Shown here piece after piece: positions 46,599 to 60,347 of a stretch of DNA of 64,000 nt; position 1 is the first letter of the stretch; each line of letters begins with the position of its first letter. A program made the translations under genes and the position numbers. The stretch is from Candidatus Staskawiczbacteria bacterium. GTDB lineage: Bacteria > Patescibacteriota > Minisyncoccia > Minisyncoccales > Staskawiczbacteraceae. Under the pieces are notes generated by a model. The model had not been told where the DNA came from. It made no database searches and was given only the letters and a program-made list of their open reading frames with translations. The stretch covers positions 14,139 through 78,138 of the forward strand of contig CAIYRH010000007.1 in assembly GCA_903928565.1 (NCBI GenBank), in the 5' to 3' direction.

Positions 46599-47105
46599 TT
46601 ATTTTTTTAGTAAGAATTTTTCAACGCCGGTATCTAAATCAATAAACTCGTCAGCGGCTTCTTTTAATTTGCCAGAAGTTGACCTACCAAAGGCAGCCAC
46701 CTCCACTCTTTTGCCCATATTTTTTAAATATTCCACTAGCGCAATAAAGTCGCCATCGCCAGAAACCAACACAACAACATCAATGCCGGGAGCCGTGCGA
46801 ATAGCATCAATTACAATTCCTACATCCCAGTCGGCTTTTTTGGCTCCGCCGTAAAATTCTTGTAAATCTTTTACTCTTGTTTCAATGCCAATTTTACTCA
46901 AAGCATCAAAAAATGGCGTTTCTTCGCCAGTTTTTGTGCGCACAACGTACCCAAAAGCTCTAATAAACTTTCTGCCTGCTACTGCTTGTTTTAAAACTTC
47001 CTGAAAATTAACTTTTGAGTGGTAGAGATTTTTTGCCGAATAGTATAAGTTTTGTACATCTATTAGCACCTCTACTCTCTGTTCTTTTGGTTTTGGTTGC
47101 ATCAC
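46599..47105 (-). CDS. NYN-domain (LabA/DUF88-like) predicted RNase
   Basis: VLIDVQNLYYSAKNL...VVLVSGDGDFIALVEYLKNMGKRVEV. Confidence 0.7.
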   Translation of the reverse strand: MMQPKPKEQRVEVLIDVQNLYYSAKNLYHSKVNFQEVLKQAVAGRKFIRAFGYVVRTKTGEETPFFDALSKIGIETRVKDLQEFYGGAKKADWDVGIVIDAIRTAPGIDVVVLVSGDGDFIALVEYLKNMGKRVEVAAFGRSTSGKLKEAADEFIDLDTGVEKFLLKK

Positions 47106-47119
47106 CTTCTATATATATG

Positions 47120-47389
47120 TTATTTCTTGAGTCCTATTTTCTTTATAATTACTGCGTATCTTTTTTCCGATGTCTTTTTTAAATAGGCTAACAATTTTTT
47201 TCTTTTTATGACCATTGTTATTAAACCTTTTTTAGAGTGGATGTCTTGAGGATGCTTTTTCAAATGCAAAACAAGCTTGTCTATTGCTTTTGACAATAAG
47301 CCAATCTGAACTTCCGAAGACCCTGTGTCTTTTTCATTTATCCCAACTTCTTTTACGATTTTTGTTTTTTCTTTGGTGTTTAATGCCAT
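47120..47389 (-). CDS. rpsO: 30S ribosomal protein S15
   Basis: 89 aa. GSSEVQIGLLSKAIDKLVLHLKKHPQDIHSKKGL. Confidence 0.9.
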   Translation of the reverse strand: MALNTKEKTKIVKEVGINEKDTGSSEVQIGLLSKAIDKLVLHLKKHPQDIHSKKGLITMVIKRKKLLAYLKKTSEKRYAVIIKKIGLKK

Positions 47390-47412
47390 TTTATAGTGTA
47401 AAAGCGCTTCCG

Positions 47413-47432
47413 CCTGCCTGCCGGCAGGCAGG
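47413..47432. repeat. 20-bp perfect GC palindrome CCTGCCTGCCGGCAGGCAGG (copy in the rpsO leader)
   Basis: Identical 20-mer also at 47818-47837. Lies 24 nt upstream of the rpsO start. Confidence 0.8.
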
Positions 47433-47486
47433 GCGCCTTAGTTAATTTATATAGATAGTATAAGCTATTTTCTCGGTTTTGTAAAG

Positions 47487-47557
47487 TGCCCCTACTCAGA
47501 ATCGGACTGAGATTGACTGCTTAAGAGGCAGCTACTTTACCATTAAGTTATAGGGGC
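47487..47557 (-). tRNA. tRNA-Lys (anticodon CTT)
   Basis: Manual cloverleaf: GCCCCTA-TA-ACTT-AATGGTA-AAGT-A-GCTGC-CTCTTAA-GCAGT-CAAT-CTCAG-TCCGATT-CTGAG-TAGGGGC-A. No encoded CCA. Confidence 0.85.
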
Positions 47558-47790
47558 ATGATATTATGCAAAAACTCTTTGCCGAAGCCACTTTTAAAAT
47601 ACTTCTCTCTTTTTCTGGCTTCTGCTCTGTTTTTACAAGCTTCTTTATATATTATTTTAAATGGTCTTCTGTATTTTGTGGATTTTGTCATTCCAGAGTT
47701 ATGCCCGATTAATCTTTTTTCGGGATTTTCAGAAATGCCTATATACAGATGTTTATCTTTTATGCTTTGTAGGGCGTAAGTATACCACAT
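47548..47790 (-). CDS. GIY-YIG nuclease superfamily protein (small stand-alone YhbQ/UPF0213-like)
   Basis: MWYTYALQSIKDKHLYIGISENPEKRLIGHNSGMTKSTKYRRPFKIIYKEACKNRAEARKREKYFK (GIY...YIG, R, E, N motifs). Its last 10 nt overlap the tRNA-Lys(CTT) 5' end. The track ORF extends upstream through tRNA-like sequence and was trimmed. Confidence 0.75.
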   Translation of the reverse strand: MWYTYALQSIKDKHLYIGISENPEKRLIGHNSGMTKSTKYRRPFKIIYKEACKNRAEARKREKYFKSGFGKEFLHNIMPL

Positions 47791-47800
47791 AAATCTCAAA

Positions 47801-47858
47801 TTAAAATAGAACTGCTCCCTGCCTGCCGGCAGGCAGGTACCAATTGAGCTACGGGGGC
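47801..47858 (-). pseudogene. Truncated tRNA (5' half of a tRNA-Lys(TTT)-like gene) with a 20-bp palindrome inserted in the D-loop
   Basis: GCCCCCG-TA-GCTC-AATTGGTA-[CCTGCCTGCCGGCAGGCAGG]-GAGC-A-GTTCT-ATTTTAA, then no complementary AGAAC, T-arm or 3' acceptor. The sequence runs directly into the GIY-YIG start 10 nt later. Confidence 0.55.
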
Positions 47859-47870
47859 ATAAAATTGGGG

Positions 47871-48236
47871 CTATAAATAATTGCCTGTCCACCCAACCGC
47901 ACCCAGGGCAAAGTTTACGATTGCTTTTGTGGCAAAAGCTAACACAAGTCCAATAACTGCCGCATAAAAAACTTTTTTACCAATGCCCATTCTCCCAGGG
48001 TCTCCCGCAGAAGTCATCATTAAGACGCCTCCTATAATAATGGCTACTACAGCCAAGGGTGCCGCTATTTTGGTAACAAGAAAGTCGTAAATATTATTTG
48101 CCGTTGTGAAAACGTCGTTTAGTGCACAGTTGTCCGTGCAGGAAACTAACCCATTATTTTGTGCTTTTGCCAAAACCGGAACAAAAATTATTGATAATAA
48201 GCACAACGTAAGAATTGCGAATAATATTTTTTTCAT
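47871..48236 (-). CDS. Stand-alone T4SS pilin (VirB2/TrbC-like, T4SS_pilin family)
   Basis: 121 aa. Signal peptide, then KIAAPLAVVAIIIGGVLMMTSAGDPGRMGIGKKVFYAAVIGLVLAFATKAIVNF (two helices with a short polar loop). Confidence 0.7.
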   Translation of the reverse strand: MKKILFAILTLCLLSIIFVPVLAKAQNNGLVSCTDNCALNDVFTTANNIYDFLVTKIAAPLAVVAIIIGGVLMMTSAGDPGRMGIGKKVFYAAVIGLVLAFATKAIVNFALGAVGWTGNYL

Positions 48237-48262
48237 GTTTTAAAGTGCCCTCGCCAGGACTC

Positions 48263-48302
48263 GCCCAGTCATTCGACTGGGCGTCGGGTTGTATAACCCG
48301 AC
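48263..48302 (-). repeat. Two abutting perfect 8-bp-stem/4-nt-loop GC-rich hairpins in the pilin leader
   Basis: gcccagtc-attc-gactgggc (48263-48282) immediately followed by gtcgggtt-gtat-aacccgac (48283-48302). Located between tRNA-Arg and the pilin start. Confidence 0.7.
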
Positions 48303-48329
48303 GAACCCCTGTTGTTGTGGAAACGTTTG

Positions 48330-48401
48330 TGCCCCTAGGAAGATTCGAACTCCCAACGTTTGGTTCGAAGCCAAATATGATATCCATTTCACCATAGGGG
48401 C
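48330..48401 (-). tRNA. tRNA-Arg (anticodon TCG)
   Basis: Manual cloverleaf: GCCCCTA-TG-GTGA-AATGGATA-TCAT-A-TTTGG-CTTCGAA-CCAAA-CGTT-GGGAG-TTCGAAT-CTTCC-TAGGGGC-A. Confidence 0.85.
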
Positions 48402-48470
48402 AGACATTTTCACCACGAGGGCAAAATTAGCTTATTATTATTTTAACCTAAAAGGGCCCAAAAAACAATT

Positions 48471-49088
48471 CTACAAAATGTTTTTAAGCTCGGCTATGCT
48501 TTTGTGTATTTTTTCTGAATGTTCGGCATCTTTTGAATATGGTCCTTTCACTAAAAAAATTTTAGCATTTTCCCCAATTGCCTTTTGCATTGCCAAAGAT
48601 TGGTCAGCTCTGTCATTTATAATAAGAACCTCTTCATTTGAGTTGGCCAACTCTTTTAGAAAATCATTTTGCGTTTTGTCTTTTTCTTCGCAAATAATTT
48701 TTTCAAAGTATTTTTTTATGCACGAGCTGTCAATTTTTGGTTGTTGCATTTGGGGGTCGCCAAATGTCATTAACACCATTTTGTATCCCCTACCCTTTAA
48801 ATAGGCCAAGGTGTCTTCTGCCCCTGGGAATAAATAGTTGTCTGTATTTTTTACTAATTTTTCAAATTCTTCTTTTATTTTATTTTCCTCTTCGTTATTT
48901 TTTATGTGACCGGAATCTTTTAAAAATTTTATGTGTTTAAACGGGTTGTAACCAACTCCATGTTTTTTAAAAAGCTCTTGGCCGTGAGCTTCGTTTTCTT
49001 CAAAAGTCAATTTAAAAACTTTGCTTTTGTCAGCTTTAAATCTTTCAATGTCTAACAGCGTGTGGTCTAAATCAAAAAGTAAAATCAT
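48471..49088 (-). CDS. HAD-superfamily hydrolase
   Basis: Motif I MILLFDLDHTLLD. Later LMTFGD and IINDRADQ motifs. 205 aa. Confidence 0.75.
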   Translation of the reverse strand: MILLFDLDHTLLDIERFKADKSKVFKLTFEENEAHGQELFKKHGVGYNPFKHIKFLKDSGHIKNNEEENKIKEEFEKLVKNTDNYLFPGAEDTLAYLKGRGYKMVLMTFGDPQMQQPKIDSSCIKKYFEKIICEEKDKTQNDFLKELANSNEEVLIINDRADQSLAMQKAIGENAKIFLVKGPYSKDAEHSEKIHKSIAELKNIL

Positions 49089-59533: not shown

Positions 59534-59559
59534 AAAAAAGGGGTTAGGCCCCTTTTTTT
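59534..59559. terminator. Bidirectional intrinsic terminator
   Basis: aaaaaa-GGGG-ttagg-CCCC-ttttttt. The stop codon of the 233-aa gene lies in the loop. Confidence 0.55.
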
Positions 59560-60245
59560 GTTTCTTCGGTTTCTGAGAAGTTTCCATCTTCAAACCTAAT
59601 CCCCTCTTGTGACTCGCCAAAAGGCGGGTCTTTTTTTGGCGCGTGAAGTTGCTTTTGAAGATAATTAATTTGAGACACTAACAACTGTTTTGTATTTCTT
59701 GCGTCGCCAATTACCTTTTCTATTATGCCCTGCATAAATTTTTCTCTTTCTATTAGTTCGTTATCTTTGGCCTTATAGTCGCCAAGCAGGGACTCGTATT
59801 TTTTAATCCAATCCTTTTTCTCGGCCCGGTCTTCTTTTAAGAGTTCTAAAAACTCTCGGTCAATGGCTACCTGATTATCCGCTAAGGCAGATTCGCTTAG
59901 GCGGTTAAGTTCGGCTTGCGAGGGTGCTTCTGGCGGGACCGCATAAGCGGTACCGCTTAAGCGGTCTGGGGTACCGCTTAAGCGGTTTTGGCTGTTTTCG
60001 TCGGACCGCTTAAGCGGTTCCGCATAAGCGGTTTCTTTGGCCACGGCGTCCAGTTCTTTTACCCAAAAATCTTCTTTCAAAAGAATGATATTTCCAACCC
60101 CTTTGTCGTGCCTTTCGCTTAAATTCCCCTCTAATTTTTGGGGTTCTACCAGTTTATACTTTCGAATTCTTCTTCTAATTCTAATGTCGGCAACATCATA
60201 TTTTTGAATAAATTCTTGTATGGTTAGGAAGTCATTATTGTTCAT
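59544..60245 (-). CDS. Hypothetical DNA-binding-like protein whose gene carries six copies of the 14-bp palindrome
   Basis: 233 aa. The N-terminus FLTIQEFIQKYDVADIRIRRRIRKY looks HTH-like. The central segment is encoded by the palindromes (PLKRS / NRLSGT / DRLSGT). Coiled-coil C-terminus. Confidence 0.5.
   Translation of the reverse strand: MNNNDFLTIQEFIQKYDVADIRIRRRIRKYKLVEPQKLEGNLSERHDKGVGNIILLKEDFWVKELDAVAKETAYAEPLKRSDENSQNRLSGTPDRLSGTAYAVPPEAPSQAELNRLSESALADNQVAIDREFLELLKEDRAEKKDWIKKYESLLGDYKAKDNELIEREKFMQGIIEKVIGDARNTKQLLVSQINYLQKQLHAPKKDPPFGESQEGIRFEDGNFSETEETKKGA
59892..60032. repeat. Intragenic array of six 14-bp palindromes (consensus ACCGCTTAAGCGGT)
   Basis: Copies start at 59892, 59938, 59952, 59973, 60005 and 60019. 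Layout from 59938: pair, 7 nt, single, 18 nt, pair. Confidence 0.85.
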
Positions 60246-60264
60246 TTTTTTGTTTTTTTTAGAG

Positions 60265-60347
60265 ACCGCTTAAGCGGTACCGCTTAAGCGGTGGGGGTAC
60301 CGCTTAAGCGCTTTTGGTGACCGCTTAAGCGGTATCGCTTAAGCGGT
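60265..60347. repeat. Upstream array of five 14-bp palindromes (consensus ACCGCTTAAGCGGT)
   Basis: Copies start at 60265, 60279, 60299, 60320 and 60334. Layout: pair, 6 nt, single, 7 nt, pair. Located between the predicted promoter and the start codon of the 233-aa gene. Confidence 0.85.

Follow-up and report, generated by a model that had tools for sequence, protein, structure and literature searches.

The tRNA-Lys(CUU) locus of a Staskawiczbacteria-like genome, a member of the Candidate Phyla Radiation (CPR, Patescibacteria), records the activity of selfish DNA. The locus lies in a 64,000-nt stretch of contig CAIYRH010000007.1, referred to here as the window, and all coordinates are positions within it. 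A gene coding for a minimal GIY-YIG nuclease and a tRNA-Lys(CUU) gene fused to its 3′ end occupy the place of the resident tRNA-Lys gene. They are preceded by the 5′ part of a further tRNA-Lys gene (the stub), which is split by a perfect 20-bp palindrome (the 20-mer). Comparison with related loci showed an insertion polymorphism, duplication of tRNA 5′ ends, lateral replacement of tRNA alleles, hairpin insertions without target-site duplication, and covariation of hairpin type with nuclease clade. From these patterns we infer, as the likeliest mechanism and with moderate confidence, a homing-type nuclease cassette that restores its tRNA target, together with a hairpin that would be mobilised in trans.

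All elements of the locus are arranged on the minus strand. The first part of the stub (47838-47858, GCCCCCGTAGCTCAATTGGTA) contains the 5′ strand of the acceptor, the 5′ strand of the D-stem, and the D-loop, and corresponds to tRNA positions 1-21. It is followed by the first copy of the 20-mer (47818-47837, CCTGCCTGCCGGCAGGCAGG), placed between tRNA positions 21 and 22, and by the second part of the stub (47801-47817, GAGCAGTTCTATTTTAA), which covers positions 22-38 with the 3′ strand of the D-stem and the 5′ strand and loop of the anticodon arm. The 3′ strand of the anticodon stem is absent after 47801. The nuclease gene (47548-47790) codes for 80 amino acids; its ATG at 47790 is found 10 nt past the stub end, and its TAA stop coincides with positions 8-10 of the intact tRNA-Lys(CUU) (47486-47557). 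The last 10 nt of the open reading frame (ORF), the stop codon included, are thus the first 10 nt of the tRNA. This tRNA was called by ARAGORN with the anticodon CTT, scored 65.6 bits with the Rfam tRNA model, and has an unusual ACTT/AAGT D-stem. A second, identical copy of the 20-mer is located at 47413-47432, in the leader of rpsO; only these two exact copies exist in the window, and the expectation from shuffled sequences is 0. The stub and the 10-nt overlap of a GIY-YIG ORF with tRNA-Lys(CUU) had been described in an earlier reading made without database searches (the sequence-only reading), and the present analysis confirmed it. The same reading had reported the second 20-mer 24 nt upstream of rpsO; the copy is there, at a distance of 23 nt from the ATG. 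The stub with its palindrome was 100% identical in five independent metagenome assemblies of other samples, and therefore the sequence is real and an assembly artefact was ruled out.

The gene order pilin, tRNA-Lys, rpsO, NYN, and pnp is kept in related loci (L014 and L216-L224), and the best matches of the S15 protein are named Candidatus Staskawiczbacteria. Four states of the site were found among the syntenic loci: an empty site, a GIY-YIG cassette (L014), a gene for a 240-aa helix-turn-helix (HTH) protein, and the arrangement of the window. In L218 and L219 (S15 90% identical), the pilin gene is followed by 13 nt, tRNA-Lys(CTT), a spacer, and rpsO. The closest relatives, L216 and L217 (S15 96% identical), have the same order with an additional unrelated insert of ~130 nt. 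No GIY-YIG gene, stub, or 20-mer was present at this locus in L216-L219. Because close relatives carry the empty site, the cassette in the window is an insertion; its stub begins 12 nt past the pilin stop codon, where the relatives have their intact tRNA-Lys. At this one site the ORF is thus polymorphic, missing from L216-L219 and present in the window and L014, a pattern characteristic of free-standing homing endonuclease genes.

The cassette of L014 differs in detail. Its stub consists of GCCCTCATAG, the same 20-mer, and CTCAATTGGTA, and, with the 20-mer left out, equals the first 21 nt of L014's own tRNA-Lys(CTT). The 20-mer follows stub position 10, compared with position 21 in the window. 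The rpsO leader of L014 has no 20-mer, and in its alignment with the leader of the window the gap is exactly 20 nt, with no duplication of the flank. In the window, the second copy of the 20-mer is a solo insertion, also without target-site duplication, between the 5′ arm and the loop of a leader hairpin (47404-47437; GGCGC / CGGAA / GCGC). This hairpin is uninterrupted in L014 (AACGC-CGGAA-GCGTT), L216 (AGCGC-CGGAA-GCGCT), and L218 (GGTGC-CGGAA-GCGCC). In L220 and L221, a solo 20-mer is cleanly inserted into the pnp leader, again with an exact 20-nt gap. Two proposals of the sequence-only reading gain support from these comparisons: the empty sites favour disruption of a tRNA gene by a nuclease-carrying insertion, and the exact gap in the rpsO leader together with the shifted position in the L014 stub favours the 20-mer as a separate miniature insert.

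The tRNA alleles do not follow the history of the neighbouring gene. At the nucleotide level, the window and L220 share 99% identity in tRNA-Lys and 82% in rpsO, whereas the window and L216 share 72% and 86%, respectively; L218 and L014 have identical tRNA-Lys genes (100%) and rpsO genes that are 77% identical. Since tRNA-Lys(CTT) and rpsO are incongruent, the tRNA allele has been exchanged laterally at this locus, and the exchange seems to have come alongside endonuclease-type genes. In a neighbour-joining tree, weak owing to its 76 residues, the nucleases of the window and of L014 nest separately among Lys(UUU)-linked nucleases, which suggests two independent arrivals of cassettes at the locus.

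Other genes and inserts were seen at the same site. In L220-L224, the 240-aa protein gene stands in the place of the GIY-YIG gene, between pilin and tRNA-Lys (L220:1613-2335, L222:1623-2345). Its product has an N-terminal HTH_23 domain and nothing else recognisable by Pfam, and in L222 a 16-nt tRNA-Lys stub precedes the gene. A LAGLIDADG endonuclease motif noticed by eye in this protein was confirmed neither by Pfam, which found the HTH domain only, nor by the PDB search. The ~130-nt insert of L216 (1150-1300) and L217 is situated directly after tRNA-Lys(CTT), and 33 nt of the tRNA 3′ end (TTCGAGCCCTGCTGGGGGCACATGAGAAATTTA) are directly repeated at its borders. It is a second small element, unrelated to the cassette, at the 3′ side of this tRNA.

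The layout of a tRNA 5′ copy split by a hairpin, a minimal GIY-YIG gene, and an intact tRNA is a widespread family, observed at about 40 loci with tRNAs for Lys, Asn, Leu, Arg, Phe, Pro, and Gly. Metagenomes scanned with the alignment of this family yielded at least 535 relatives, and the locus counts were made on the best 80 of them. The exact 20-mer was located 10-51 nt upstream of the GIY-YIG start in all 10 homologue loci fetched first and in 35 of the 80 metagenome loci, where exact copies within 80 nt upstream of the ORF were counted; with up to two mismatches, the number was 39 of 80. In every locus fetched for the 60 homologues of the protein, the exact 20-mer lay 19-36 nt upstream of the ORF start. 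A tRNA on the same strand began between -39 and +110 nt from the ORF stop in 52 of 77 loci. In 12 loci, the ORF overlaps the tRNA by 10-11 nt, and the stop codon there is the conserved tRNA sequence U8-A9-G/A10. The tRNAs linked to the family include Lys(UUU), Asn, Leu (four anticodons), Arg, Phe, Pro, Gly, Met, His, Thr, and Glu.

In 36 of the 40 loci with both features, the sequences on either side of the 20-mer reproduce the downstream tRNA almost exactly, from position 1 to position 21-45. The 20-mer was found after tRNA positions 9-32, most often after 20-22 (40 loci). In the window and in L146, L148, and L180, neither half of the stub matches the intact tRNA. Tandem units were present in L011, L012, L177, and L205. 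An ORF-less remnant, made of stub, 20-mer, ~30 nt, and intact tRNA, was found in L045, and L098 is probably another, with an uninterrupted copy of the target 64 nt downstream. Such remnants and tandem units are the decay stages expected of homing elements. Our search of the full-text literature, which covered few subscription journals, returned no description of the arrangement, of the 20-mer, or of a link between GIY-YIG, tRNA, and palindrome, and the family is apparently undescribed. A survey of rRNA insertions in the CPR reported sparse GIY-YIG ORFs and did not mention tRNA loci or palindromes (PMC11270868).

Two loci showed further variants. L010 is identical to L008 up to position 21 of tRNA-Lys and then continues with the 20-mer, an Asn-type cassette (a second GIY-YIG gene and tRNA-Asn), and a different downstream flank; this switch from Lys to Asn may be either a recombination at the palindrome or a chimeric contig. 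In L148 (1580-1640), a 20-mer is placed inside the T-loop of a duplicated 3′ fragment of tRNA-Leu, downstream of the intact tRNA; therefore, tRNA fragments bearing the hairpin can also be present on the 3′ side.

The window is an outlier in the family as regards the stub. Its stub matches the first 38 nt of the tRNA-Lys of L014, L218, L222, L008, and L144 at 33 of 38 positions, which establishes its tRNA ancestry, and the window's own intact tRNA-Lys at 26 of 38 only. The similarity is equal (33/38) for the resident tRNA-Lys(CUU) alleles of relatives and for the tRNA-Lys(UUU) of sister elements. Rfam did not call the stub as a tRNA at E values up to 10, nor did ARAGORN after in silico deletion of the 20-mer, as expected for a half of 38 nt. 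The covariance-model check suggested in the sequence-only reading was therefore negative, and the tRNA ancestry it had proposed stands on the identity to relatives. The stub has no complete cloverleaf: the 3′ acceptor strand, the T-arm, and the 3′ strand of the anticodon stem are lacking. An orphan 3′ half (TTCNANTC-N5-CGGGGGCA, with T-arm) was not found in the 64-kb window at up to two mismatches, in accordance with the earlier observation that it was missing. The stub is a pseudogene remnant and not half of a functional tRNA-Lys(UUU). It may be either a resident relic or an import with the cassette, and in both cases it is dead.

The 80-aa protein matched the Pfam family GIY-YIG (PF01541) over residues 1-70 with E=2e-16 and 60.3 bits against a cut-off of 22.6. 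Residues Y5, Y16, G18, R26, H30, and E62 were invariant in 24 homologues. The profile search against PDB gave the UPF0213 proteins 1ywl (1.4e-10) and 1zg2 (6.5e-9) as the best matches, followed by SLX1 (2e-4) and I-TevI (5e-3). The 60 homologues are 47-100% identical, and nearly all are 75-85 aa long. According to Pfam, a separate DNA-binding domain as in I-TevI or the Seg proteins is absent from the protein. These data place the protein in the Slx1/UPF0213 branch, with no auxiliary domains, and not in the homing-endonuclease/UvrC branch. A superfamily survey characterised the proteins of this branch as domains of minimal size that stand alone and are related to Slx1, a structure-specific nuclease, and predicted that the bacterial members are DNA-repair proteins inherited mainly vertically (PMC1564403).

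The 20-mer itself is spread much more widely than the cassettes. Exact copies were found in more than 120 stretches of the genome collection, among the matches listed, and in 35 viral stretches. Judged by record titles, the hosts among the listed matches belong to about ten major bacterial groups. They include many classes of Patescibacteria; Bacteroidota with the cultured Winogradskyella, Flagellimonas, Longitalea, and Flavivirga; Omnitrophota; Planctomycetota; Gammaproteobacteria; "delta proteobacteria"; Bdellovibrionales; Thermodesulfovibrio and Thermodesulfovibrionales; Thermodesulfobacteriota; and Chloroflexi. Most genomic copies are solo and have no target duplication. Flanking direct repeats of at least 5 nt were found in 4% of 123 distinct copies compared with 0.4% of control positions, and the visible cases were all in tandem-repeat DNA. 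The insertion point was inside a host hairpin with a stem of at least 6 bp in 10.6% of these copies and in 1.9% of the controls, and the flanking bases were A and T in 27%. For about 12 copies, the joined flanks recur without interruption no more than 700 nt away, as in the architecture of a stub; the corresponding figure for controls is 0.5%. The family hidden Markov model (HMM) detected GIY-YIG genes at no fewer than 9 of 120 genome loci with solo 20-mers, a lower bound because this HMM is narrow. Contamination with an adapter or linker was ruled out by the fixed position relative to ORFs and stubs, by orthologous presence across samples (L220/L221), and by the occurrence in isolate genomes.

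Several copies had particular settings. In a phage tRNA-Met from IMG/VR viral contigs (L249:2239-2330, L226:8616), the 20-mer is in the variable loop, and ARAGORN still called a tRNA of 92 nt; the insertion may be tolerated there and imitate a long variable arm. The 29.5-kb viral contig IMGVR_UViG_3300037242_000417 (L245, L252, L253) contains six copies, some of which are placed between short inverted repeats of the host (CCCGTAG^GGGCGG; CCCTCG^..CGAGGG). Solo 20-mers, as well as the arm-flanked elements described below, were often seen in short heptamer tandem repeats (TTCGTCA, AATTACG, TCTAAAA, GGACACAGA; L060, L065, L073, L097, L116, L182, L185, L196, and others), and in L182, L185, and L196 the repeats around arm-flanked elements are just upstream of PDDEXK_3 genes.

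In more distant nuclease relatives, the tRNA stub holds ORF-less hairpins of 45-60 nt or variant palindromes built on CCYGCCYGCC / GGCRGGCRGG arms. One clade has an 86-aa ORF between the arms, in units of 325-334 bp (~326 bp). These units have 10-nt terminal inverted repeats, with the arms CCCGCCCGCC... and ...GGCGGGCRGG, and GIY-YIG is their only ORF. Removal of the unit restores the frames of PDDEXK_3 genes (PD-(D/E)XK, GxxExxY-type) in L163, L170, and L189, and no target duplication is left. The elements of L163, L170, L189, L210, and related loci are located at the same conserved codon position (..NELG^FGFLE..) of PDDEXK_3 genes, and further elements interrupt the start codon (A^TG) of genes of this kind. 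Each half of the 20-mer differs from the arm tips (CCYGCCYGCC...GGCRGGCRGG) at one or two positions. Hairpin type covaried with nuclease clade in the tree on 76 residues. The 20-mer thus resembles two joined arm tips. Tentatively, and with more doubt than confidence, we suggest that GC-rich hairpins, the 20-bp palindrome, and the ~326-bp units form an unrecognised class of mobile DNA. It would be moved without target duplication by a minimal Slx1-like nuclease, would occur in at least eight bacterial phyla and in viruses, and would prey on tRNA genes and other conserved multicopy targets.

In the mechanism that we consider the likeliest, the cassette would spread like a homing-endonuclease gene. 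An unoccupied tRNA gene that has suffered a break would be repaired from the occupied allele, the stub giving homology on the left side and the intact tRNA on the right. Repair would install the ORF with a fresh tRNA 5′ part, and sometimes a whole tRNA allele, so that tRNA function is kept. Because the protein has only a Slx1-type catalytic domain, the hairpin is its probable substrate: a DNA structure that would be cut by the domain-poor, structure-specific nuclease and thereby mobilised in trans. Copies landing in working tRNAs would be purged by selection, which would explain why hairpins are seen in stubs, leaders, and intergenic DNA. The stop codon at tRNA positions 8-10 adds a possible control. 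RNase P processing of a co-transcript would cut it off and leave a non-stop mRNA, and this loss may limit nuclease expression.

Several observations weigh against this mechanism. The 80-aa protein has no DNA-binding domain, unlike the characterised GIY-YIG homing endonucleases I-TevI and SegB, which makes it doubtful that tRNA genes are cut in a sequence-specific way. The intact tRNA restored beside the gene should itself be a target, and the model gives no reason for its immunity. The mismatch of the window's stub with its own tRNA (26/38) makes the window an exception to the duplication expected. The 20-mer is identical at 20 of 20 positions across nucleases that are only ~50% identical, which exceeds what typical recognition sites require. 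About 90% of the solo 20-mers have no family GIY-YIG gene within the 8 kb fetched, as judged with the narrow HMM. Finally, both hairpin arms are upstream of the ORF at loci of the tRNA type, whereas elsewhere the ORF lies between the arms.

The strongest competitor, which we regard as possible and on balance unlikely, treats the GIY-YIG protein as a transposase-like enzyme. The mobile unit would consist of the hairpin, tRNA positions 22 to k, the ORF, and tRNA positions 1-21, and it would excise and then insert precisely, without target duplication, at tRNA position 21/22. A single event would then make both the stub and the restored tRNA, and the 20-mer would be the minimal non-autonomous form. 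The precise insertions without target-site duplication agree with this scheme, as do the ~326-bp units with 10-nt terminal inverted repeats and this ORF only, the modal 20-mer position of 20-22, the covariation of hairpin type with nuclease clade, and the excess of insertion points in host hairpins (10.6% vs 1.9%). The tandem arrays of L011 and L012 are exactly the product of a unit that re-inserts at position 21/22 of the intact tRNA. However, the scheme predicts chimeric stubs, and in the window, L146, L148, and L180 the two halves of the stub belong together and differ from the intact tRNA. The position of the 20-mer ranges from 9 to 32, and the L014 stub ends at 21 with its 20-mer at 10. 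We know of no GIY-YIG enzyme that carries out strand transfer, and a host ligase would be needed.

It is improbable that the palindrome is a cis-regulatory or protein-binding site (an operator for the nuclease or for a host factor, a transcription insulator or terminator, or an RNA-processing hairpin) which travels only within cassettes. Its constant place 10-51 nt upstream of the ORF start would suit such a role, the perfect dyad suits a dimeric binder, both copies in the window are in transcribed leaders or untranslated stretches, and RNA folding predicts an 8-bp hairpin. More than 100 solo copies are nevertheless found far from GIY-YIG genes, in unrelated contexts and phyla, and the clean 20-nt presence or absence between orthologous leaders and the variable stub position also speak against it. 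A terminator was rejected: the terminator scan called neither copy in the window, and the rpsO copy sits downstream of a promoter-like site. A structured 5′ untranslated region was likewise rejected, as the fold of the surrounding region is no better than shuffled sequences (z = -0.12).

Very improbable, in our estimate, is a domesticated factor of tRNA or RNA metabolism that is co-transcribed with tRNAs, the stubs being incidental duplications. The tight same-strand linkage or overlap with tRNA genes of many isotypes would fit, and the reported fusion of a Slx1-like domain with a TrmH-like tRNA methyltransferase in prokaryotes has been read as a hint at RNA metabolism (PMC1564403). Against this, the gene is patchily distributed and missing from the closest relatives, it has joined different tRNAs in different genomes, and stubs, tandem arrays, and ORF-less remnants accompany it. 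Sister clades are inside PDDEXK_3 genes, and the family occurs in viral contigs.

Almost no credence is due to a split or intron-containing tRNA-Lys(UUU) of which the stub would be one half, with completion in trans or by splicing. In favour of it are the canonical acceptor and D-arm of the stub, the UUU triplet in the place of its anticodon, and an acceptor sequence (GCCCCCG) equal to that of tRNA-Lys(UUU) in L008 and L136. Against it, no 3′ half exists within 64 kb and no intron family was matched. The stubs of relatives are plain duplicates of the intact tRNA beside them, their length (21-45 nt) and hairpin position vary, and the pattern is repeated in stubs of Asn, Leu, Arg, Phe, Pro, and Gly tRNAs. 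The concern of the sequence-only reading about a lost or split tRNA-Lys(UUU), with a resulting problem in decoding AAA, is thus not borne out, since stubs duplicate the 5′ part of the adjacent tRNA in 36 of 40 related loci and the stub is equally like CUU alleles; an ordinary tRNA-Lys(UUU) gene is expected elsewhere in the genome. Its rejection of a group I intron was right. A permissive Rfam scan of window positions 47000-48600 returned two tRNAs and a sub-threshold S15 leader only, with no intron family. A group I or other tRNA intron was also rejected for want of a 3′ exon, and because the intervening 243 nt are the ORF, followed by a complete separate tRNA.

The neighbouring features of the window are as follows. 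Upstream, a gene for a pilin-like protein of the type IV secretion system (47871-48236, minus strand; Pfam T4SS_pilin and TrbC) fixes the synteny. Downstream, rpsO (47120-47389, minus strand; Pfam Ribosomal_S15) codes for ribosomal protein S15 and has its ATG at 47389. The promoter-like site for rpsO (47457-47485, minus strand) has the sequence TTTACA-17-TATACT with 10 of 12 matches; it is a match to the consensus only, and similar hexamers were seen at the same place in relatives. The Rfam match to the S15 leader (47333-47435) reached 26.1 bits, below the gathering score of 39.5, and is partly an artefact of the insertion, because the first stem of the model is formed by the inserted palindrome. 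A different palindrome of 14 bp (ACCGCTTAAGCGGT) occurs in eight exact copies and near-variants at 59933-60333, some in the 5′ part of the minus-strand ORF 59544-60245 and others directly upstream of it; these copies look like iterons or operators.

Among known systems, SegB, a free-standing GIY-YIG homing endonuclease in the tRNA gene cluster of phage T4, is functionally the closest case. According to the abstract of its description, the recognition site of SegB includes a conserved tRNA motif, and the enzyme promotes the inheritance of its own gene with the surrounding tRNA genes (PMC2330249). In both cases, the GIY-YIG gene is found among or beside tRNA genes and is not intronic. The incongruence of the window tRNA alleles with the flanking genes likewise recalls the reported spread of SegB with tRNA genes. 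Seg and I-TevI enzymes have a C-terminal DNA-binding domain, whereas the window protein of 80 aa consists of the catalytic domain only and belongs to the Slx1/UPF0213 branch. To our knowledge, neither a tRNA stub nor a conserved palindrome accompanies SegB homing. The protein resembles Slx1 and UPF0213 (YhbQ-like) proteins, its best profile matches, in size and in the missing auxiliary domains (PMC1564403), and a hairpin or cruciform as substrate would suit the structure-specific nuclease activity of Slx1. Unlike the UPF0213 proteins, predicted to be vertically inherited repair proteins (PMC1564403), the genes described here are associated with insertion polymorphism, target duplications, and a dedicated hairpin.

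We also compared the palindrome with small mobile elements, and in its behaviour as a hairpin it is similar to the insertion sequences IS200/IS605 and to repetitive extragenic palindromes with their associated tyrosine transposases (REP/RAYT). Those systems have short GC-rich palindromes, no target-site duplication, scattered ORF-less copies, and a small autonomous form with a single ORF. They rely on HUH Y1 transposases and imperfect, lineage-specific hairpins, whereas here only GIY-YIG is present and the 20-mer is identical across phyla. Miniature inverted-repeat transposable elements (MITEs) and the palindromic elements of Rickettsia are likewise non-coding palindromic inserts within protein and RNA genes. 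They are, however, ~100-150 bp or longer, compared with a unit of 20 bp, and MITEs usually have target duplications and a DDE transposase, whereas the 20-mer has no target duplication. The combination that defines a classical insertion sequence or MITE, a target-site duplication with a DDE, HUH, serine, or tyrosine transposase, was not observed, GIY-YIG being the only ORF. Integrase islands and prophages at tRNAs also restore the tRNA from a partial copy borne by the element and leave a partial direct repeat. There, the 3′ part is duplicated and a tyrosine or serine recombinase is encoded. Here, the duplication affects the 5′ part, and no recombinase gene was found between pilin and rpsO in the window. 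An insert of the classical type, with a 3′ repeat, does occur at this tRNA in L216 and L217.

UPF0213/Slx1-like mini-nucleases are very common in bacteria and have no established function, and a large clade of them is now linked to a defined DNA structure and to tRNA genes. If the nuclease moves the 20-mer, DNA mobility would have a further enzymatic route and mobile DNA a new lower limit of size: no mobile DNA element smaller than the 20-mer would be known, and the 326-bp unit would rank among the smallest autonomous ones. For genome annotation, the family accounts for recurrent 5′ pseudo-fragments of tRNAs and for short hypothetical GIY-YIG genes beside tRNAs in the CPR, Bacteroidota, and other phyla. 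The position of the stop codon within the tRNA suggests a way in which nuclease expression could be coupled to tRNA processing, and tRNA alleles can apparently be laterally replaced along with nuclease genes.

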